This document shows positions 11,982 to 26,694 of a stretch of 36,611 bases of DNA, piece after piece. How positions within the stretch are numbered: the stretch's first letter is position 1; each line of letters opens with the position of its first letter. A program made the position numbers and the translations under genes. A model generated the notes under the pieces. The model did not search any database. It saw nothing but the letters and a program-made list of their open reading frames with translations, and was not told the origin of the DNA. This DNA is from a virus (Duplodnaviria; Heunggongvirae; Uroviricota; Caudoviricetes), in the IMG/VR virus record IMGVR_UViG_2874956758_000004, positions 1 to 36,611 of that record; one strand, written 5' to 3'.

Positions 11982-13514
11982 TTATTCAGCTGGCAGTGCT
12001 ATGCGCCACGGAAGCAGTTCGCTGACCCGGTTGACCGGCCAGTCTGCTATGACGCCAAGCACATGGCGAAGGTAGCTTTCTGGATCCACGTCATTCAGTT
12101 TGCACGTCCCGATCAGGCTGTACAGTAGCGCTCCCCGCTCACCACCATGGTCAGAGCCGAAGAACAGGAAGTTTTTACGACCCAGACTGACCGCCCGCAG
12201 GGCATTTTCAGCGATGTTGTTGTCGATTTCCACCCAGCCATCGTTCGCATAGTACGTCAGTGCCGGCCACTGGTTAAGTGCGTACGCGAACGCCTTCGCC
12301 AACTCTGAGTGTCGCGACAGGGTCTTCATCTTTTCACGCAACCAGCTTTCCAGGGATTTCAACAGCGGTTTCGTTTTTCGCTGACGTTCAGCAAGCCGCT
12401 GCTCTGCCGGCATTCCCCTTATATCCGCCTCTATGGCGTACAACTGACCGAGCTGCTCCAGGGCTTCTTCCGTCAGTGCTGACGGGATGCGGACGTGCAC
12501 ATCGTGGATCTTTCGGCGGGCATGAGCCCAGCAGGCAGCTTCCGTTATCCCACCATTGCGGTACAGCTCGTTGAACCCGGCGTACGCATCCGCTTGCAGC
12601 ACACCGCTGAAGCAAGCAAGATGAGTCTGCGGATGGATGCCTTTTCTGTCCGGGCTGTAAGCGAACCACACTGCAGGTGCCAACGCTGACCCGGCATTGC
12701 GGTCATCACGAACATACGCCCACAACCGCCCGGTCTTCGTCTTCTTATTACCCGGCATCAGTACCTGGACCGGGGTATCATCAGCATGGAGTTTGCCGTC
12801 AGTCATGACATAGCCATGAAGCGCCTCTTCCAGCGGAGACAGCAGCCGGCAGCATGCATCCACCCAGCCCGACAGCAGTGAACGGCTCAGCTTCACACCT
12901 TGCCGGCCGTATATTTCTGACTGGCGATACAGCGGGGTGTGCTCTGCATACTTCGAGGTCAGCACGCGGGCCAGCAGCCCCGGTCCGGCGATACCCCGCT
13001 CGATGGGCCGCGAAGGTGCAGGTGCCTGCACGATGGCATCGCACTGAGTACAGGCATGTTTTTCCCGTACCGTCCGGATAACCCGGAAGGCACTACGCAT
13101 CAACTCCAGCTGTTCGGCGGTATCCTCGCCCAGATAGCTCAGTGAACCGCCGCAGTTCGGGCAGCACGGCGCCGCAGGCAACAGTCGCTTTTCGTCACGG
13201 GGTAGTGATTCAGGGAACGGCTTACGGGTGCGGGTCTGACGCAACGGACGCTGTACTGCCGGGTCATACACCCTACCAGTCAGCGTATCGCTCTCTTTCT
13301 GAAGCCGGTTCAGATCGGCTTCCATTTGTGCGATACGGCGGGAGACTTTTTCGGAACGACTGCCGAAGTTCATCCGGCGGAGTTTATCCAGCTGCGCCTG
13401 CAGATGGTCTATTTCGCGCTCCCGGTTGCTCAGCTTTTCCTGCAGGGCGTGGATCTCCTGTTCGGCCAGGCGCTGTTTCAGCAGGAAGATGTCGTCAGAA
13501 GAGATGTCGTTCAT
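11982..13514 (-). CDS. IS66-family transposase TnpC (orf3)
   Basis: 510-aa ORF with N-terminal coiled coil and CxxC zinc-finger segment (CCPNCGG…CTQC). Confidence 0.85.
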
Positions 13515-16855: not shown

Positions 16856-17739
16856 GCAGCCACACCTCTGATACGAGAACGGTAACTGGGCCAGTTAAAC
16901 GACAACCAGTTGCGTCCCCCGTCTGTGATCCTGTCGGCAATTCGGGGACTGATGAACGCCCACAACTCTTCCGGTGAGAGGTTACTGATCAGAATGGTGG
17001 GCAAGATACTTTCGTACCTGGCGTTGATAATTTCCTGCAAAATAGCCATTTCAGCCGCGCTGCCAAACTGAACGCCAACTTCGTCGATGATCAGCAAATC
17101 CATTGACGCATAACGCTCAATAACTTCATCCGCTGTTTTTTCGCTGTCATTCCGCCAGCAATTTTTCACAGCACGGGTAAGGCGCATCACGTCGGTGATC
17201 TCCACACTGGCCAGATAGTTACGGATGATGTGTTTTGCCATAGCCACAGCCAGATGATTTTTTCCGGTACCACAACTGCCGGTCATAACAAGACTGGTAC
17301 CGTTCTCCAGCATATCTGGCCAGTTCTCCGCATAGCGGCGACAGGCCGCAAGATTTCTGGCTGCGTCAGGATTAACCTCCAGATAATTATCAAACTCGTA
17401 GTCCCGAAAACGCAGGGCAATTCCGGCGTTATCAGTCAGCTCTTCCGCCTTGATGGACGACAGCTCCATGGTCAAATCGTTGGCCTCAGCGATTAAGCAG
17501 TCAGAGCAGCATGAAATTTTTTCTCTGTCCTCGCCATTACGATCGCTCCACACCAGTATATTCGTGTGATATTCGCCATGTTTTTCGCAATATCCGCGAC
17601 CTTCACGCATCAGGCAGGAACGATAAGGCCATGGCTTTTCGCCCTTCTGAGCAAATGCAATCTCTGCCCGTAACTCATCCATTCGCGCCTGTAGTCTTTT
17701 TTGTTGTTCACGCAGGTTAAACGTCATCATCGCTGTCAC
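16852..17739 (-). CDS. DnaC/IstB-like AAA+ helicase loader with Cys/His-rich N-terminal segment; likely start at the internal ATG after GAGG
   Basis: Walker A GSCGTGKNHLAVAMA, Walker B LLIIDEVG; stop of the upstream initiator frame overlaps its start. Confidence 0.8.
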   Translation of the reverse strand: MTAMMTFNLREQQKRLQARMDELRAEIAFAQKGEKPWPYRSCLMREGRGYCEKHGEYHTNILVWSDRNGEDREKISCCSDCLIAEANDLTMELSSIKAEELTDNAGIALRFRDYEFDNYLEVNPDAARNLAACRRYAENWPDMLENGTSLVMTGSCGTGKNHLAVAMAKHIIRNYLASVEITDVMRLTRAVKNCWRNDSEKTADEVIERYASMDLLIIDEVGVQFGSAAEMAILQEIINARYESILPTILISNLSPEELWAFISPRIADRITDGGRNWLSFNWPSYRSRIRGVAA

Positions 17740-18154
17740 CTCAGAATGTCAGTTTGTCACTGGATTTACCGAATTTGTCAGACATGGCTCCCAGGCCAGC
17801 CAGGACATCGACCTGTCGCTGTCGCCCACCTCCGGGAGCGGCTGGCTGTTGCCAGAATTCTTCGAAGTGACGATCAGGTCCAAAGAACGTCGCTGCCTGC
17901 TTCACGAACTGTGTGCCGTTATTTCCTGTAGCACGTATCTAGGCGGCATACCGCTTCACGCCATCAAGCATGGTCTCCGGTTTTATTCCCTCCCTGATAC
18001 GGGCTTTCCAGGCTTTGAAGGCTGCTGACTTGGAATTACCACCAGCACGTTTGGGATATTCCTGCCAGGCCTGTTCAAATTCCGGTGAATATTCCTGTCG
18101 GGCAGAACGCGCTGGTGCAGACGCGTCAGCGGATGCGCCAATAGTGTTTTTAGT

Positions 18155-18206
18155 CTCTGTAGTATTCTCTGAAGTAATCTCTGTTGTATTCTCTGTTGTA
18201 TTCTCT
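18155..18206. repeat. Tandem 12-bp repeats (about 4.5 copies) inside the initiator gene
   Basis: tctctgtagtat tctctgaagtaa tctctgttgtat tctctgttgtat tctctgtaag. Confidence 0.7.
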
Positions 18207-18220
18207 GTAAGATCGAAATT

Positions 18221-18335
18221 GGTTTTCCCTTCTCCGAGGCGAGGGGTTTCCCGTGTCCGCGGTGAAGGCTTTCCCTCCTCCGCGAAATTGGGTTTTACAG
18301 TTTCCCGAAAACGGGTTTCCCCATTTCGGGAAAAC
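18221..18335. repeat. Five dispersed GGTTTCCC-type repeats at 17-23 bp spacing inside the initiator gene
   Basis: ggttttccc, ggtttcccg, gctttccct, ggttttacagtttccc, ggtttcccc, followed by an AT-rich stretch. Confidence 0.6.
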
Positions 18336-18805
18336 TGATTGTTTTCATTGATAATTTCATTAAGGCGCTCACAATCTATACGGTAGAACATTTTGTGCTC
18401 AAGACGCTTGTTGGTTTCAACCAAAATGCCTCTGGACACAAGATGCTTACGCGCTACAGCCTGTTGTTCAAATGTAAGTCCGGTTTCGTGTTGTATCTCT
18501 TCACGCGTTTATGTACGCCTTCCGCTGCATGTGCTTTATCCTGCCAGTAAAAAATCTTACCAAAGAAAATAACAGCGTGCGGACTTCCCATGTATTTAAC
18601 GAGCCCAGGGTAATAAGCAACCGGATGTCCAAAATCGAGCAGAAGATCAGACGGACGCATAGCCACCTCCCAGGCGTTTAAACATTTTCCCGGACTGAAA
18701 CACCACCAGTGGGTAACTGATGGTGTAGCTACGCCCCAGTAATTCACACACAACTTTCTGGTTGAGGTGTACTGGCAATAGCGGACACTACCATTTGTTC
18801 TTTTT

Positions 18806-19624
18806 TTAAGCAGCCATCTGATGATATTTTTCCCTGAAGGCTGCCGGGGAGATATTCCCCAGACGAGAGTGACGACGCTGACGATTGTAGAAAATCTCAA
18901 TGTATTCCCGTATTACTGAGATGGCTTCATCCCGGTTATTAAAACGATAGTGGCTCAGGCTCTCATTTTTCAGCGTTCCCCAGAAGCTTTCCATCGGAGC
19001 GTTGTCGTAACAGTTACCTTTACGCGACATTGATGTTTTCAGACCAGACTGCTCCTGTATGACCCGGTAATCGTATGCGCAGTACTGTGAACCTCGATCA
19101 GAGTGGTGGATTAGCCCGGCAGGTGGGCGCTGGCTCCTGAGCGCCATAAACAGGGCTTTACCTGTCAGCTCTTTTGTCATGCGCTCTCCCATGGCGTAGC
19201 CGACAATTTCGCACGTATAAACATCTTTGACGCCGGCGAGATACAGCCATCCTTCCCGGGTGGCAACATACGTTATATCTGCGACCCAGACCTGATTAGG
19301 TGCTGTGGGCGTAAAGTTCTGATTCAGCAGATTCGGCGTAACCGGCAGATTGTGGTCTGAGTTTGTGGTCGCCCTGAATTTGCGTTTCTGCTTACAGTGC
19401 AGCCTCAGCTCCTTACGAAGACGTGCCAGTCGGTCACGACCAACGATGATGCCATTCTCTGCCAGCTCCGTCTGGAGCCGCCGGGTTCCATATGTTTCGC
19501 GAGTGCGGATATGTGCCACCTTAATCTCCAGTTTTAGCCGCTCATCACTTTGTTTTCTGTCTGAGGGTTCATGCTGTACCCAGTTGTAATAACCGCTCCT
19601 GGATACACCAAATACCTGACACAT
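18806..19624 (-). CDS. IS600 OrfB, intact reading frame (272 aa)
   Basis: MCQVFGVSRSGYYNWVQHEPSDRK…HSDRGSQYCAYDY…YHQMAA with no internal stop. Confidence 0.85.
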   Translation of the reverse strand: MCQVFGVSRSGYYNWVQHEPSDRKQSDERLKLEIKVAHIRTRETYGTRRLQTELAENGIIVGRDRLARLRKELRLHCKQKRKFRATTNSDHNLPVTPNLLNQNFTPTAPNQVWVADITYVATREGWLYLAGVKDVYTCEIVGYAMGERMTKELTGKALFMALRSQRPPAGLIHHSDRGSQYCAYDYRVIQEQSGLKTSMSRKGNCYDNAPMESFWGTLKNESLSHYRFNNRDEAISVIREYIEIFYNRQRRHSRLGNISPAAFREKYHQMAA

Positions 19625-19920
19625 CGCTTCAACAGGGAATTGTTGTCGCCATTGTTCGACTAACGCGTATTTTTCAGCGACTCCTGGGCAAAATACGCTG
19701 TTGTAGATTCAATCTGTCAATGCAACACCCCTTTCAATTATCTCTTTCGGTGTTTTGAACTTCAGTGTCTTTCTCGGTCTGTTGTTTAGCTGAGCAGCAA
19801 CCAGATCTAGTTCATGTTGAGTATATTGGGCAAGACATGTCTTTTTAGGAAAGTACTGCCGAATTAGCCCATTTGTGTTCTCATTTGTTCCCCGCTGCCA
19901 AGGACTCTGAGGATCGCAGA

Positions 19921-21525
19921 AGGGGATGCGGACGATTTCCTGGACTGCTTTATCATTCCAGCCCGCATTGTTGGCGGTACATTTCAGGGCTGACTGCACC
20001 CAGCGATAATTTTATACGCCGCTCGTTATACCATCTGATGTAAGCATCTACATGCTGCATGAACTTTTCTGGCGTGATGCCCGACCATTTACGCCCATAA
20101 TACATTTCCGTTTTCAGTCTGCCGAAAAAGCCTTCGCATGCAGCATTATCAGGTGAACATCCTTTACGGGACATTGAGCGAATAAGACCTGCTGCATTCA
20201 CTCTTTCCAGCCAGCCTGGCCAGCGATAATGCCCACCTCTGTCACTGTGTATCACCGGTCGTTCGCCAGCATTTAACGTTTCGACAGCGCTATCCAGCAT
20301 AGTGTTGACCAGTTCAGCATCGGGGCGTGTACTGAGAGACCAGCTCACAACTTTTCCATCGAAGCAGTCCACCACCGGTGACAGCCAGACTTTACCTGCA
20401 GGGAGCTGGAACTCCGTGATATCTGTCAGCCATTTCTGATTAGGTTGCTCCGCCTTAAAATCTCTGGCGATAAGGTTATCCGGAGCCGGTCCGATTTTTC
20501 CGCAATATGAGCTGTAGCGGCGCCGACGGTTACGGCTGACGACAAGCTGTTCCTCCACCATAAGTCTGCGTACAACCTTTTCTGATAGCCGAACCCCCTC
20601 ATGCCTGAGCATCGCATGCAGGCGACGATAGCCATAACACTGGTAATTACTGTTAAATATATCTGTCAGCATCGTACGTATCGTGGCGTATTTATCACCG
20701 GCTTTCAGGGCAGCCCGGTGATAAAAATAACTGCTACGGGCAAGGCCCAGAACATGCAGTAATTCTGTCAGGGGATATGTTTGTCTCAGGGCATCAGCGA
20801 TCTTTGTTTTTTCTCTGTTGTTCAGGTGACTGATACTGATGCCCGGGTCTTTTTTTATGATTTCCTCCGCCTTTTTCAGAATATCCAGCTCCATCTGCCG
20901 GCGGCGTATTTCCTGATTCAGTCGGGCGACTTCCTCCCGCAACGCATCGCGTTCTGCCTCCAGGGAAGGTTCGTTATGTTTACGCATAGTCTGGTAAGCA
21001 CTGTTGCCGATAATTTCATCTTTCCATTTATACAATACCGCACGACTGACACCAATACGCCTGGCGATTTCACTGGCTGATACTTGTCGTGTACAGAGTG
21101 CCATGACAGCCTGACGTTTGACTTCTGGTTCAAAGGGCGCAACCGGGTTGGCCTTACTGGTAAATATACGTCGTCTGTCGGGATAAAGTTCATTAACCCA
21201 GCGAGCGAGTACATCAGTGCAGGGATAACCCAGGGCTCTGCTGGTAAACGCCAGGCAGCAGCCGTGGTTAAGATAATGTTCAACGGCAACCTGTTTTTGT
21301 TCATCGGAGTAACGGTGCTTATGACGAATAGATTCTTTTGCGCCACCACCTGCTTCCCATGAGCGGATCCAACGCCGCAGATTTCTTTTCGAAGGGTAGC
21401 CCAGTTCGCGTACGACGGGAGCCAGCTTCTTACCATATTTGAAATAAAGCTCAATGGCGCGGATTTTTTCTTCTTCAGTAAACATGTGTTATCTCCTGAG
21501 AGTCCAGGAAATCGTCCGCATCCCC
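19921..21525 (-). mobile_element. IS3-superfamily element (1605 bp), 25-bp perfect terminal inverted repeats, 3-bp target duplication
   Basis: Ends GGGGATGCGGACGATTTCCTGGACT / AGTCCAGGAAATCGTCCGCATCCCC; gaa at 19918-19920 and 21526-21528. Confidence 0.8.
19953..21485 (-). CDS. Single-ORF transposase, 510 aa (two N-terminal HTH-like segments plus integrase-type DDE domain)
   Basis: …WLTDITEF…, …HSDRGGHYRW…, C-terminal …SLGAVSPEMYRQQ typical of IS3-family OrfB, fused to an OrfA-like N-terminus with no frameshift. Confidence 0.75.
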   Translation of the reverse strand: MFTEEEKIRAIELYFKYGKKLAPVVRELGYPSKRNLRRWIRSWEAGGGAKESIRHKHRYSDEQKQVAVEHYLNHGCCLAFTSRALGYPCTDVLARWVNELYPDRRRIFTSKANPVAPFEPEVKRQAVMALCTRQVSASEIARRIGVSRAVLYKWKDEIIGNSAYQTMRKHNEPSLEAERDALREEVARLNQEIRRRQMELDILKKAEEIIKKDPGISISHLNNREKTKIADALRQTYPLTELLHVLGLARSSYFYHRAALKAGDKYATIRTMLTDIFNSNYQCYGYRRLHAMLRHEGVRLSEKVVRRLMVEEQLVVSRNRRRRYSSYCGKIGPAPDNLIARDFKAEQPNQKWLTDITEFQLPAGKVWLSPVVDCFDGKVVSWSLSTRPDAELVNTMLDSAVETLNAGERPVIHSDRGGHYRWPGWLERVNAAGLIRSMSRKGCSPDNAACEGFFGRLKTEMYYGRKWSGITPEKFMQHVDAYIRWYNERRIKLSLGAVSPEMYRQQCGLE

Positions 21526-22423
21526 GAAGTAAACTTTAACGCTGGTGCTGACAGTAAATTCTAGATGTCTGGCCAGTTCCATTCCTCTGTCCCATGTCAG
21601 TGATTTTCTGAGTTCTGACGGTAAACTCAGGAATTTGTCGGTAAGAGCCTGATTTACTGAGACAGAATCTTTGCCCCTGAGTCTAAGGATGATCGTATAA
21701 CGTGATTTTCGGTCTACAAGTGTGGCTATATGAGAGTTTTTTGTACCTGAGACTAAATCGCCCTCCCAATGTCCCAGAGAGCGTCTGTTATCGATATTTC
21801 GGGAACGATCGTGAATTGGTGTTCCGTTCACTATGTTAATCGTACCTCTTTCGCCTTTGCGGGTATGACGCCTGCCATGGCGAAGGCTATGCGACCGTCG
21901 CAGATGCTGTATATTCAGGTGGTGTAGCGCTTCACGGCTACGAAAGTACAGCGTTTTATAAATTGTCTCAGGTGATATTCGCAGCGTTTTTTGACGTGGT
22001 TTTGTTCGCCTTAACCATCCTGATATTTGCTCTGGAGACCATTTCATCTCCAGCTTTTCCAGAACAAGCTTTCGCAATGGTAAATTTTGATCCAGTAAGC
22101 ACGGTTTTGGCCTTTTCGCCATTCTGTTGGCTCGGTTATTAGCATCAACAGCTTTGTAATAGCGTCTGCCCCGATTACGCTGAACTTCACGTGAGATCGT
22201 CGAAGGACTGCGATTCAGCGCAGTAGCTATCGCACGAATGCTCATTTTGACTGACAAACCAGCTCGTATCTCCTCGCGCTCAGACAGTGTCAGGTGAGCT
22301 ACAGCCCGCTTACGCTCATGGGGTTTTATGCCGCCAGTATCCCTTAACATAGTGAAGATCGTTCCGGGTTTTGAACCCAGGATATTCGCTATTTCACTGA
22401 AGCCTGTTCCGTTCTTCCATAGT

Positions 22424-22792
22424 TCAAAAACAGAGGCTTTTTCCTCTGCTGTAAATGTTCGTCTCATTCAAAAAACCTCCGCAACCCCATGTTTTCACAT
22501 AACTGTTGCGTTGACCAATTGAATCTACAGTTGCTTTTTTTAATATATCTCGCTCAAGGCGAGCTTCATTTAACGCCTTACGCAGTTGCAGAATTTCAGA
22601 TTCCAGTTCAGCCACCGTGCGGGAACCAGGAGTACCGAGCCCTTTTCTGGCGGCGGTAACCCATTGTCCTAAAGTGCCTTCAGGAAGGGATAATCGGGAA
22701 GCGCCTTCACTGATCGAAAGTTGATTTTCAAGAACCGTTCTGACAGCTTCGGCTTTGAACTCTTTAGAGTAACGTTGGGTTTTTCTGCTCAT
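22424..22792 (-). pseudogene. IS600 OrfA (copy 2), 3' end displaced by IS30
   Basis: Same 122-aa translation as copy 1. Confidence 0.8.
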
Positions 22793-23125
22793 TATTAGCT
22801 CCTTCTGATGCCATTCTATTTCAGGAAGGAGTGTCCGTTAAACTCAGGCTACCTCAGTCGGCAGTTTTGTTCCATCACGTCTTCCTGCATCAACGGGCAA
22901 ATATGTTACTGTTGCTGGAATATTAACAACAGTCCAATGCCACCAACCACTGCCTGTAGGTGCATCTGGATCATATACAGTTACGGCAAAGCTTTTGGTA
23001 CCTTCAGGGACACCAGACCAGGTTAATGAGGGCGATGTATTACCACCTTCACACCCAAATCCAGAAAAGACATGAGACGTTGTAAGTTGCTCTCCTGTTT
23101 TTATTTCATTACTAGGCTGTGTCCC

Positions 23126-23641
23126 TTAATTACGTAAGCGTTGATAAAAGAGTCGGATGCAGCCCAGTTTCACCATCGCCAGGTAATTTCTCGCCGTTTT
23201 GTCGTAACGCGTGGCGATGCGGCGATATTCTTTCAGCCGCCCAAAGCACCGTTCAACGACATTACGATTGCGGTACGCATCACGATCAAGCTGTGCACGT
23301 CCATCCGATGCCATTTTCTCATTTGACTTTCGGGGGATTACTGCCTTTATACCGTTATTTTTCAGCTCGTTGCGCAATGCGCGCCCTGAATACGCTTTAT
23401 CAGCCAGTACCGCATGTCCACGGCGTTTCATGCTGCCGTTCTGACGCTGAACGCCAATCCCGTCCAGAAGTCGTTGCGCGAACTGGCTTTCATGAGCTTG
23501 TCCGGGGCTTAGCACGATATTTAACGGGAGGCCACTTCCGTCTGTTGCCAGATGGATTTTGGTGCCAAAACCGCCGCGAGAGCGACCCGGCCCATTATCT
23601 CCGTCGATATCGGGATGTTTTTTTGAGCACCGGCGGCACAT
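23126..23641 (-). CDS. IS5-family transposase, C-terminal ORF (DDE region), overlapping the N-terminal ORF
   Basis: 171-aa ORF overlapping the upstream ORF by about 120 bp in another frame. Confidence 0.65.
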   Translation of the reverse strand: MCRRCSKKHPDIDGDNGPGRSRGGFGTKIHLATDGSGLPLNIVLSPGQAHESQFAQRLLDGIGVQRQNGSMKRRGHAVLADKAYSGRALRNELKNNGIKAVIPRKSNEKMASDGRAQLDRDAYRNRNVVERCFGRLKEYRRIATRYDKTARNYLAMVKLGCIRLFYQRLRN

Positions 23642-23970
23642 TTCAGCGCCCGGATATTACTGCCATCCAGCGCGGTGGCAGACCAGTCAATAAAGCCGTT
23701 TGCATCAAGTAGCGAAAGCAACCTGTTGAAAATAATATTAATCACGCCTGACTTTGACCATCGGTTAAAGCGGTTATAAACAGTTTTCCATGCCCCATAT
23801 CGTTCGGGTAAATTGCGCCATGGTGCACCGGAACATAACACCCAGAACATGCCATTGATGATTTTACGGTGCTCAGCCCATGGGCGTCCGGCCCGTGGTG
23901 TGGCGGGTTCAGGAGGTAACAGAGGCTTGATTATGGTCCATGCCTCATCGGGAAGGTCGTAGCGAGCCAT
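23521..23970 (-). CDS. IS5-family transposase, N-terminal ORF
   Basis: MARYDLPDEAWTIIKPLLPPEPATPRAGRPWAEHRKIINGMFWVLCSGAPWRNLPERYG…. Confidence 0.7.
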   Translation of the reverse strand: MARYDLPDEAWTIIKPLLPPEPATPRAGRPWAEHRKIINGMFWVLCSGAPWRNLPERYGAWKTVYNRFNRWSKSGVINIIFNRLLSLLDANGFIDWSATALDGSNIRALKCAAGAQKNIPISTEIMGRVALAAVLAPKSIWQQTEVASR

Positions 23971-24710
23971 AGTTCAATCTGTTGTGTAAACAGACAGTTA
24001 CTATAGCTCAGATGATTAAGGGACACAGCCTAGTGACCTGAAATGCTGCAGCCTGCGCAGAAAATGTTATGAATGCCAATACAGTTGAAACGATAAGTGT
24101 TTTCATAAAAACCTCTTTGTTATGACCTATCGTTATTTTATTTGATATTCCTTTATCTCATTATGCATAAAGGCGCAATGTTCATGCAAAAGCAATCACA
24201 ATTGTACCCCCAACCCAATTATTTGCCACAATATACACAAAGCACATTGATACTATTAAAAACTCTGCTTTATTATTAGTAATACCTACGAAAGTCGGTG
24301 TTATTTTTTAACCTACCATTCAAAATACGTGACATACACCATTTTGCTCATAATAATTTGTCACGTATTTTCAGTATTTGAATCTGCGACCAAGAGTTCT
24401 CACCTAACAAATGATTAAGATTGTATAGCTCATTTACTACCCCAATACAGCCGTACAAAACTCGCTTGTGGGAGCAAACAAAGTAATCACCCATTAAGTT
24501 TCGTTAAAGATAATTAATTCTGTCTTGCACTTTATCATCAGTGCATAACTTAAAATCCAAGATCATTATTTAGAAATAAATCTCACCATCAACCATATAT
24601 TTGAGAGCACTTATCGCCTGCTGGGCGGATATTACTTTCATTAAAGGATAGTGTTTACAAACAATGCCATTCATAAAATATGATATCACAGGTTTTATTA
24701 TCCGTATTAA

Positions 24711-25194
24711 TTATGATTTTTCGAATGTTTTATAGGCAAGTGTACGGCATAACTCTCGTCCATTTTTACTGGTTAAGTCAATAGCATAAAAATCACTGAA
24801 TGAATTTACACCTTTACTCTTCAAAGTTTTCAATGATACCGAAGCCCTTCGTAATTCCTTATCTAATAGTCTTATTTTCTCTGCTATAGCGGTAACTTCA
24901 GGCGCGACAGACAATGCAACGATTAAATTATTAATTTTCATCTGAAGCTCAATAATTTTTAACTCTAAAGTTTCATTAGCATCTTTCTTGTTTTCAACTG
25001 GTTGAATTTTGCTACAATTAAAAAGCAATTGATTAATGATATTATAATCAACCAAATCTCTTTTTATTGATGGCCTGTCACATCGATGTAATCTTCTCAT
25101 CGGACAAACATAATAGCCATGCAAACTTCCAGATACCGCATGAACAATCATAGTATTACCACAAGCCTCACACTTCATAACTGTTCGAAGTAGA
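24711..25194 (-). pseudogene. C-terminal fragment of a serine recombinase (DLP12 ybcK-like), 5' part replaced by IS2
   Basis: Zinc-ribbon-like CEACGNTMIVH…YYVCPMRRLHRCD followed by coiled-coil region; the ORF reads straight out of the IS2 terminus. Confidence 0.6.
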
Positions 25195-25285
25195 TAGACT
25201 GGCCCCCTGAATCTCCAGACAACCAGTATCACTTAAATAAGTGATAGTCTTAATACTAGTTTTTAGACTAGTCATTGGAGAACAG

Positions 25286-25651
25286 ATGATTGATGTCTTA
25301 GGGCCGGAGAAACGCAGACGGCGTACCACACAGGAAAAGATCGCAATTGTTCAGCAGAGCTTTGAACCGGGGATGACGGTCTCCCTCGTTGCCCGGCAAC
25401 ATGGTATAGCAGCCAGCCAGTTATTTCTCTGGCGTAAGCAATACCAGGAAGGAAGTCTTACTGCTGTGGCCGCCGGAGAACAGGTTGTTCCTGCCTCTCA
25501 ACTTGCTGCCGCCATGAAGCAGATTAAAGAACTCCAGCGCCTGCTCGGCAAGAAAACGATGGAAAATGAACTCCTCAAAGAAGCCGTTGAATATGGACGG
25601 GCAAAAAAGTGGATAGCGCACGCGCCCTTATTGCCCGGGGATGGGGAGTAA
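25286..25651 (+). CDS. insC: IS2 OrfA (InsC)
   Basis: As other copies; one substitution (QHGIAAS). Confidence 0.9.
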
Positions 25652-26514
25652 GCTTAGTCAGCCGTTGTCTCCGGGTGTCGCGTGCGCAGTTGCACGTCAT
25701 TCTCAGACGAACCGATGACTGGATGGATGGCCGCCGCAGTCGTCACACTGATGATACGGATGTGCTTCTCCGTATACACCATGTTATCGGAGAGCTGCCC
25801 ACGTATGGTTATCGTCGGGTATGGGCGCTGCTTCGCAGACAGGCAGAACTTGATGGTATGCCTGCGATCAATGCCAAACGTGTTTACCGGATCATGCGCC
25901 AGAATGCGCTGTTGCTTGAGCGAAAACCTGCTGTACCGCCATCGAAACGGGCACATACAGGCAGAGTGGCCGTGAAAGAAAGCAATCAGCGATGGTGCTC
26001 TGACGGGTTCGAGTTCTGCTGTGATAACGGAGAGAGACTGCGTGTCACGTTCGCGCTGGACTGCTGTGATCGTGAGGCACTGCACTGGGCGATGACTACC
26101 GGCGGCTTCAACAGTGAAACAGTACAGGACGTCATGCTGGGAGCGGTGGAACGCCGCTTCGGCAACGATCTTCCGTCGTCTCCAGTGGAGTGGCTGACGG
26201 ATAATGGTTCATGCTACCGGGCTAATGAAACACGCCAGTTCGCCCGGATGTTGGGACTTGAACCGAAGAACACGGCGGTGCGGAGTCCGGAGAGTAACGG
26301 AATAGCAGAGAGCTTCGTGAAAACGATAAAGCGTGACTACATCAGTATCATGCCCAAACCAGACGGGTTAACGGCAGCAAAGAACCTTGCAGAGGCGTTC
26401 GAGCATTATAACGAATGGCATCCGCATAGTGCGCTGGGTTATCGCTCGCCACGGGAATATCTGCGGCAGCGGGCTTGTAATGGGTTAAGTGATAACAGAT
26501 GTCTGGAAATATAG
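25609..26514 (+). CDS. insD: IS2 OrfB (InsD)
   Basis: As other copies; one substitution (HWAMTTGG). Confidence 0.9.
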
Positions 26515-26525
26515 GGGCAAATCCA

Positions 26526-26694
26526 ACACCGTTCGCCAGACCTTACCATCAACGACCAGGATTCCTGCCCGCGCCATTTTAGCCGCAGCCTGATTTATGC
26601 TGGTTACGGTTGCGCCTGTTACCGCGGCAACGTCCTGCGCACAGAAGTTCTTATGAGTCCCCAGGTAATGAATAATTGCCTCTTTGCCCGTCAT
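26526..26694 (-). pseudogene. ren: ren, 3'-truncated by IS2
   Basis: MTGKEAIIHYLGTHKNFCAQDVAAVTGATVTSINQAAAKMARAGILVVDGKVWRTV matches remembered lambda Ren N-terminus, then runs into the IS2 end. Confidence 0.75.

Follow-up and report, generated by a model that had tools for sequence, protein, structure and literature searches.

We analyzed a 36,611-nt stretch of viral DNA (Caudoviricetes; IMG/VR record IMGVR_UViG_2874956758_000004, positions 1 to 36,611; hereafter the window) that carries three insertion sequences (ISs) nested in one another. According to the sequence and the open reading frame (ORF) listing of the window, the minus strand holds all three layers, an IS600 containing an IS30 that in turn contains an element of the IS3 family. 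The whole IS600 spans 18763-22856, has TGAGGT...ACCTCA ends and measures 1264 bp after removal of its insert. IS30 spans 19702-22529, measures 1221 bp after removal of its own insert and is bordered by a GT duplication (19700-19701 and 22530-22531), and the inner element occupies 19922-21525, with inverted repeats at 19922-19946 and 21501-21525 and GAA on both sides. The insertions divide IS600 into a 3' part (18763-19701) with the right inverted repeat and the orfB side, including an orfB ORF at 18806-19624 with Pfam rve and NCBIfam IS3 matches, and a 5' part (22530-22856) with the left inverted repeat and orfA, cut off 6 nt after its A_AAA_AAA slippery site; the GT copy made by the IS30 insertion (22530-22531) is counted with the 5' part. 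IS30 is likewise divided into a 3' part (19702-19921) with the C-terminal 79 transposase codons and the right end, and a 5' part (21526-22529) with the left end and the N-terminal 304 codons, of which 21526-21528 form the second GAA copy. Nested ISs are ordinary in Shigella, and the one point of wider interest here is a conserved in-frame cassette within the transposase gene of the inner element.

The layers were reconstructed by excision in silico. Removing the inner element and one GAA gave an IS30 of exactly 1221 bp with an intact 383-aa ORF, whose product reads ...VKVYFCDPQSPW... across the former insertion point, and the rebuilt IS30 was 99.75% identical to the annotated intact IS30 of Escherichia coli ABU 83972. 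Its ends read TGTAGATTCAAT..., with agreement between both ends at 23 of 26 terminal bases, and the NCBIfam IS30 model scored 182 bits against a cut-off of 80; the 1221-bp length, the terminal repeats of ~26 bp, a duplication within the 2-3-bp range and the 383-aa transposase are those of IS30. Removing IS30 and one GT, by which 19701 is joined to 22532-22856, gave exactly 1264 bp with an orfA of 100 aa and an orfB of 272 aa, and these values, together with the A_AAA_AAA slippery site, are those of IS600. Matching E. coli segments carry annotations of IS600-family and IS30-family transposases. Because both reconstructions are exact and restore intact ORFs, they argue strongly that the three layers arose by successive insertion, and the nest and the identities of its layers are confirmed. 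The first-pass annotation had described a three-deep nest with IS30 in the orfA/orfB junction of IS600, a 2-bp duplication at that junction, and an innermost element splitting the IS30 transposase. All of this was borne out by the ends, the duplications, the reconstructions and the annotated homologues, the 2-bp duplication being GT and lying 6 nt past the slippery site. Its further statement that each layer has both readable ends and duplications holds for the ends of all three and for the duplications of IS30 and the inner element, but not for the duplication of the outer IS600.

The inner element is 1604 bp long, not 1605 bp as first given. Its termini are perfect 25-bp inverted repeats, GGGGATGCGGACGATTTCCTGGACT, as had been claimed along with the GAA duplication (19919-19921 and 21526-21528); on re-inspection the repeat pattern occurred at 2 sites in the window and in none of 100 shuffles. 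The repeat length fits the ~20-40 bp of the IS3 family, whereas the termini are 5'-GG...CC-3' and not TG...CA; ten Shigella dysenteriae copies, described below, diverge directly outside the GGGG terminus. Target duplications were 3 bp at seven independent insertions and 4 bp at one, within the 3-5 bp of the family. The non-coding ends are short (19922-19952 and 21486-21525), with only 40 nt from the left end to the ATG.

A single transposase ORF of 510 aa (19953-21485, minus strand) fills the rest of the inner element, where IS3 members have two overlapping ORFs, and the transposase is thus encoded in frame 0; the early suspicion that this was unusual for the family and worth checking was well founded. 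Pfam and NCBIfam scans and an alignment of relatives (alignment A1) placed in the protein an extra N-terminal helix-turn-helix (HTH) at residues 6-47, HTH_Tnp_1 with a coiled coil at 118-193, HTH_21 at 275-322 and an rve domain (E = 1.9e-18). The NCBIfam IS3 transposase model NF033516 matched residues 121-504 with 428 bits (cut-off 160), and since the match starts at residue 121, the first ~120 residues are an addition to a standard OrfAB. The catalytic residues D355, D415 and E451 were invariant in 15 relatives, as was K458, giving an rve-type DDE site with a D415-E451 spacing of 35 residues and a basic residue seven positions after E, as in the DD(35)E signature of IS3. A second ORF of exactly 510 aa lies elsewhere in the window (11982-13514, minus strand). 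It is unrelated to the inner element (BLASTP E = 0.26), so that the equal length is a coincidence, and from its sequence alone we judge it to encode a putative IS66-family transposase.

Within the 510-aa frame we found a candidate -1 frameshift cassette at 20789-20856 (minus strand), recognized by codon usage, synonymous-site constraint, covariation and hairpin z-score. It consists of a heptamer A_AAA_AAA (20856-20850), a 5-nt spacer, two stem arms (20844-20834 and 20799-20789) and a -1-frame UGA (20796-20794). We examined 84 loci of relatives for ORF and heptamer (Gamma-, Beta- and Alphaproteobacteria and Firmicutes), from which 64 distinct sequences entered the codon statistics. Codons 210-213 of this subgroup read NNA AAA AAA G. 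The A7G run was present in 78 of the 84 loci and A_AAA_AAG in 4, while one was broken and one was not found. All 64 sequences encode K211 by AAA, and 59 of 63 do so for K212, compared with 13-53% for AAA in eight other conserved lysine columns, and codon 210 (I, L or V) ended in A in all 64, against a background of 11% for such codons. A single codon was used in at least 93% of sequences in only seven of 189 conserved columns, six of which fall within codons 208-232, and this segment had the lowest third-position entropy of the gene (0.46-0.8 bits versus a mean of 1.41). Such codon invariance reflects selection at the nucleotide level, not the protein level.

The heptamer is followed by a stem. 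In the window, GGGCAUCAGU pairs with GCUGAUGCCC over ~11 bp with 34 nt enclosed, starting 5 nt past the heptamer, and the fold z-score of this hairpin is -4.0. RNAalifold predicted the stem for 63 sequences with compensatory changes present: pair 25-72, which connects codon position 1 of I/V216 with the synonymous position 3 of D231, is GC in 29, AU in 28 and GU in 5, and pair 30-67 is CG in 34, UA in 14 and UG in 13. In the extended structure 90.8% of cells were paired, compared with 29-53% when the partners were slid by 1-3 columns, and none of 500 shuffles reached the observed covariation. There was no Rfam family for the cassette. Read on the opposite strand, the same bases resemble an intrinsic terminator that would act against antisense read-through, with a G+C-rich plus-strand stem (20789-20844) followed by TTTTTTT (20850-20856). 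However, the loop measures 34 nt, the T run begins after a 5-nt gap from the stem, and a terminator scan gave no match. Furthermore, the sense strand is rich in G.U pairs (GU at pair 28-69 in 39 of 63, UG at pair 41-50 in 58, and the UG cases of pair 30-67 given above), which would become C.A mismatches on the antisense strand; the structure therefore belongs to the mRNA, and an antisense terminator is ruled out to the extent that we give it next to no weight.

The single ORF is not a quirk of the window copy; judging from the sequences of its relatives, a large IS3 subgroup conserves this layout. Nearly all complete proteins within the 120 best database matches of the 510-aa protein were 508-515 aa long, with coverage of 97-100% and identities of 56-84%. 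When one genome per species was scanned, 583 relatives were obtained, the best 80 of which came from Gamma-, Beta- and Alphaproteobacteria, Firmicutes and other metagenome-assembled genomes, and a complete single ORF of the expected size was present in 65 of the 84 loci. The inner element has the features that define the subgroup, namely a single-frame transposase of ~508-515 aa with an added N-terminal HTH region, a stem following an in-frame A_AAA_AAA_G, and GGGG(A/G)TGCGG...TGGAC ends. Two end types were found among the relatives, one with 25-bp repeats starting GGGG and a total length of 1604-1612 bp, and the other (L040, L058, L078, L095, L026 and others) with ~55-bp repeats starting TGTTGATT that enclose the 25-bp core and a total length of 1660-1680 bp. 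A relative in Enterococcus faecium retains the heptamer, the stem and GGGGGTGCGGAC ends. The first-pass annotation had allowed that the ORF might belong to a known fused-ORF IS, which would lower the novelty but not the structure; the structure stands, and a single ORF is normal for a subgroup that has named members.

These relatives also bear on whether the frame arose by accident, that is, whether a recent 1-nt change in the slippery run fused orfA and orfB and left the element deregulated or dead. IS3 elements normally carry orfA and orfB in frames 0 and -1 (PMC5009743) and homopolymer runs are prone to indels, which makes such a change conceivable. Yet the fused frame and the A7 run are shared by 78 of 84 diverse loci at 50-84% protein identity in several phyla, an A8 run was seen in none of the 84, the named relatives are also single coding sequences (CDSs), and the near-identical S. 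dysenteriae copies all have intact ORFs. The presence of the fused frame across the subgroup thus excludes a recent fusion mutation for practical purposes, and we consider this origin very improbable.

With an in-phase X_XXY_YYZ heptamer, a stable stem and 5-6 nt between them, the cassette has the geometry of a bacterial -1 programmed ribosomal frameshift site. Since the catalytic domain lies in frame 0, shifting cannot be required for making the transposase. A -1 shift at codon 212 would read 18 further codons (RPGHQYQSPEQQRKNKDR) and then meet the UGA in the 3' arm of the stem; the -1-frame stop follows after 18 codons in 50 of the 64 sequences and after 10 codons in 10. We infer a reversal of the classical IS3 logic, in which standard translation would yield the full DNA-binding and DDE transposase while the cassette (A_AAA_AAA_G, 5-nt spacer and ~11-bp stem) would send a fraction of the ribosomes into the -1 frame at codon 212. 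The shifted ribosomes would stop to leave a 230-aa protein with the HTH and coiled-coil domains but no catalytic domain, a putative OrfA-like regulator of transposition, so that the enzyme would be made by default and the regulator by shifting, as in dnaX. In E. coli dnaX (tau/gamma), the full product is likewise read in frame 0 and the shorter one arises by a -1 shift at an A-rich heptamer with a downstream stem-loop and an early stop (PMC3711429). The dnaX protein is unrelated, and its heptamer is A_AAA_AAG with a stop one codon after the shift (PMC5009743), in contrast to A_AAA_AAA, a stop after 18 codons and a predicted shift in the inner element.

Several points weigh against this reading. 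The 230-aa product is predicted from sequence alone, and since the stem's 3' arm contains the -1 stop, conservation of that stop is possibly a by-product of the structure. No conserved Shine-Dalgarno-like stimulator was found upstream of the heptamer across the family (alignment A2), and in E. coli A_AAA_AAG is more prone to shifting than A_AAA_AAA (PMC5009743). No sigma-70-like promoter was found in the 40-nt leader before the ATG, nor by eye across a modelled junction of the circle with abutted ends through which IS3 elements transpose by copy-out-paste-in, and the GG...CC termini depart from those typical of IS3. The cassette could also act through ribosome pausing instead of shifting. That the inverted recoding logic applies to a widespread IS3 subgroup, comprising hundreds of elements from Proteobacteria to Firmicutes and including IS1353 of Tn21-type integrons and ISKpn38, is accordingly a proposal from comparative sequence data whose chance of being right we put slightly below even.

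Two other uses of the cassette compete with ribosomal frameshifting. RNA polymerase could slip on the A7 run and give A6 and A8 mRNAs, from which truncated proteins of 220 or 230 aa would be translated with no ribosomal shift. The IS3 relative IS1447 sets a precedent, as its slippage requires a run of 7 A or more and goes in either direction, at ~16% each (PMC6211511). Both alternative frames are short in the present subgroup as well (a +1 stop after 8 codons in 51 of 64 sequences, and the -1 stop after 18 codons in 50 of 64), and A7 is preferred over the more ribosome-shifty A6G. Against this, four members with A_AAA_AAG keep the ribosomal heptamer while the run shrinks to 6, and the conserved stem lies 5-6 nt downstream, which is the geometry of a ribosomal stimulator, whereas the helper hairpin of IS1447 lies upstream. 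These variants and the position of the stem favor a ribosomal mechanism, and we regard slippage as unlikely. Alternatively, the heptamer and the stem may be a translational pause site that gives the nascent N-terminal domain time to bind the element ends in cis, with no relevant shifted product. Co-translational binding by the nascent N-terminal domain has been described as the source of cis preference in IS3-family transposases (PMC6350997), and the pattern seen here, a conserved structure with a shifted tail that shows no conservation beyond frame-0 demands, is what pausing would leave. A pause would nevertheless need neither the exact X_XXY_YYZ phase nor the rare NNA codon at position 210 (64 of 64), and it appears to us a little less likely even than slippage.

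Compared with the classical members IS600, IS911, IS2 and IS150, the inner element shares the DDE (rve) domain, an HTH and coiled coil before the slippery site, the 3-bp duplication and a heptamer with a structure. In the classical members OrfA is the frame-0 product and the transposase arises from the shift, whereas in the inner element the outputs would be swapped. Relative to the LKKA motif that IS600 uses, its slippery site is displaced 7 codons downstream, and it differs further in its ~120 extra N-terminal residues and GG...CC ends. IS600 itself is listed as a proven case of -1 frameshifting with the same A_AAA_AAA heptamer and a stem-loop (PMC4066793, Table S4).

Closer likenesses were found among named single-ORF elements. 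ISKpn38 of Klebsiella plasmids has a single 510-aa CDS with 61% protein identity over its full length and the same ATA AAA AAA GAT CTG GGC ATC cassette, but 61% is far too low for the same element, the isoform threshold of ISfinder being about 95% protein identity; full inverted repeats were not recovered at the ISKpn38 locus by our end-finding script. An element beside IS1326 istA and tniB on plasmid pSD_174, which we take to be IS1353 from its position next to IS1326 (the record says 'IS3 family transposase'), has a single 514-aa CDS with 52% identity and the A7G cassette. It is more distant in sequence, has the ends GGGGTGCGGAC...TTGGAC and a length of ~1611 bp, and is also nested in another IS. 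The ISBmu11 family of Burkholderia has a single 512-aa CDS with 54% identity and the same cassette, but is betaproteobacterial and of high G+C content. ISBmu11 appears in a list of IS3 members with a frameshift motif and a likely stimulatory structure in which the shifted product is unstated (PMC4066793). The IS1447/ISPpy1 subgroup resembles the inner element in having long inverted repeats, unconventional non-TG ends and a run of A where orfA meets orfB. IS1447 differs in having A9 followed by T, an upstream hairpin and orfB in the +1 frame, and thus needs +1 transcriptional slippage, while the inner element has an A7G run, an in-frame ORF and a downstream hairpin.

Of the sampled non-Firmicutes IS1447 relatives, 76.5%, including ISPpy1, need 'no or -1' frameshift, and the same paper credits a new IS3 subgroup to Petrova et al. 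2013 (PMC6211511). The subgroup, perhaps also the cassette, is probably known to specialists, and the cassette may have been described already for the ISPpy1 subgroup. The 2013 study reportedly describes an atypical frameshifting box, together with long repeats whose ends are unconventional. Our literature search gave only indirect statements on single-ORF IS3 elements with a retained frameshift signal and no description of an inverted recoding logic. No specific name was obtained for the inner element from PGAP, PLSDB or cluster names, all of which give just 'IS3 family transposase', and a literature search by length had no match to a 1604-bp IS. ISSd1 was considered as a candidate name and was not confirmed, as the ISSd1 literature examined gives neither sequence nor family. 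We rate the inner element as a new or unnamed member of a known IS3 subgroup, although it may already be named in ISfinder.

The inner element has numerous close copies in S. dysenteriae. GCA_031665835.1 encodes the exact 510-aa protein at 7 places and CP026831.1 at 3, and two sites are common to both, leaving 8 distinct loci. These ten copies are 0-3 nt from the window copy and all of their ORFs are intact. Duplications of 3 bp were found at the seven independent sites (TTC, ATA, GAT, GTC, GAC, TAC and AAT) and one of 4 bp (CAGT) at another, while several other copies are without duplications, as expected from recombination between IS copies. By these sequence data the inner element is intact and recently mobile in S. 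dysenteriae.

Outside S. dysenteriae, the inner element had matches in 1,742 E. coli records, close to full length in 858, and in 987 plasmids from Escherichia, Shigella, Klebsiella and Salmonella. A chromosomal copy in a uropathogenic lineage, on the sat island, is a pseudogene with TAG at the codon of the invariant Trp154 and no duplication; it adjoins sat and an L-lactate permease fragment and was present in 4 of 4 genomes inspected (SCU-172, ABU 83972, VR50 and B20105). Lesions of other kinds disrupt further copies, and intact ones are found on plasmids of E. coli and E. albertii. The E. coli copies do not share a leaky TGA at codon 154, since the sat-island stop is TAG and the lesions of the other copies differ. 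Two 1605-bp copies, in E. coli SC418 (L099) and on a Shigella boydii plasmid (L005), are either flagged 'programmed frameshift' by PGAP or unannotated. Both retain an A-run of 7, with the additional base near codon 390, which rules out an A7/A8 polymorphism behind the flag; this looks like an ordinary frameshift mutation mislabelled as programmed.

Turning to the outer layers, IS30 sits 6 nt 3' of the IS600 heptamer TTA AAA AAA G (an A_AAA_AAA slippery site). The Rfam ALIL frameshift pseudoknot gave a weak, sub-threshold match at 19597-19699 on the minus strand (18.8 bits against a gathering score of 50, E = 0.089) that begins immediately 3' of the IS30 insertion point. Lying between the heptamer and the ALIL-like match, IS30 would have parted the slippery site of IS600 from its stimulator, and the nested IS600 copy should therefore make no transposase of its own. 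No target duplication surrounds the outer IS600, with GGT at 18760-18762 and GTC at 22857-22859. To its left lies an LvrA-related gene of a lambdoid prophage and to its right the interior of ybcL of a DLP12-type prophage, and the two flanks were contiguous in none of 5,426 complete E. coli genomes. With flanks from different prophage contexts, this copy sits at an IS600-mediated rearrangement junction. The window is identical from 16953 to 24485 to positions 2,509,763-2,517,295 of S. dysenteriae CP026831.1.

We also found a second IS600::IS30 composite at 6476-8962 (plus strand, 2487 bp), inverted relative to the nest and 9.8 kb away, in which an intact IS30 (6803-8023) has exactly the same insertion position in IS600 and 6476-6802 is 100% identical to the IS600 5' part of the nest. 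No duplication flanks this composite (TGT versus GAA). The two composites of the window differ at 47 positions, 35 of them within ~210 bp of orfB (composite positions 1813-2019), a clustering that indicates a recombination patch. A composite with the same junction is found in urinary-tract E. coli; in strain ABU 83972 it lies next to sat, differs from window copy A at only 11 positions and is flanked by GTT|GTT. The one junction shared by both window composites and ABU 83972 indicates that the IS30-in-IS600 event is old and that the composite has spread, and the GTT|GTT repeats suggest that it may move as a unit, probably mobilised by IS600 transposase supplied in trans. Repeated insertion of IS30 at one hot spot could also have produced the shared junction. 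An inversion between the two composites was considered as the cause of the missing duplications and rejected, as the flanks do not pair.

The junction between IS30 and the inner element had no full-length match in the 5,426 E. coli genomes and 72,556 plasmids, which indicates that the inner insertion is specific to the S. dysenteriae lineage. The region is thus shown to hold a three-step insertion history in a decayed S. dysenteriae prophage. IS30 first inserted 6 nt downstream of the IS600 slippery site, giving an old and repeated composite; one copy of the composite came to rest at a rearrangement junction with no duplication around IS600; and the 1604-bp element then entered the IS30 transposase gene with a 3-bp duplication, inactivating IS30. 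The first-pass annotation was right on the structure and identities of the nest, but contained neither the second IS600::IS30 composite nor the frameshift cassette. Taken as a whole, our explanation, comprising the insertion history, a recently mobile inner element and a default transposase with a regulator made by -1 shift, is one that we believe to be reasonably probable.

Other likely mobile elements were also found in the window. Adjoining the nest, 23126-23970 (minus strand) holds overlapping ORFs of 149 and 171 aa, the second with DDE_Tnp_1 (L015 gene list); it looks like a two-ORF element of the IS5 family and may use frameshifting. Full repeats of 1331 bp at 4077-5407, 25194-26526 and 30198-31530 (listed spans) were 99.8-99.9% identical and carry a 301-aa ORF each, with a partial copy at the window start (1-458). 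The length fits IS2, and matching E. coli regions have IS2-family annotations.

The nest orders IS activity in its lineage, with IS30 first, then the spread of the composite and then the 1604-bp element, and shows which element is now expanding in S. dysenteriae. Annotation pipelines label the subgroup of this element just 'IS3 family transposase', or wrongly as pseudogenes or programmed frameshifts. A complete and strongly conserved recoding cassette lies within the continuous ORF of the subgroup. If the proposed logic is true, it would matter for annotation, as the predicted 230-aa product is never called, and for elements common in the clinic such as ISKpn38 and IS1353. Frameshift efficiency would then set the dose of the inhibitor, not of the enzyme, and the subgroup would offer a clean natural test case of frameshifting that truncates a protein instead of extending it, and would show that IS3 elements have another means of setting the ratio of transposase to regulator.

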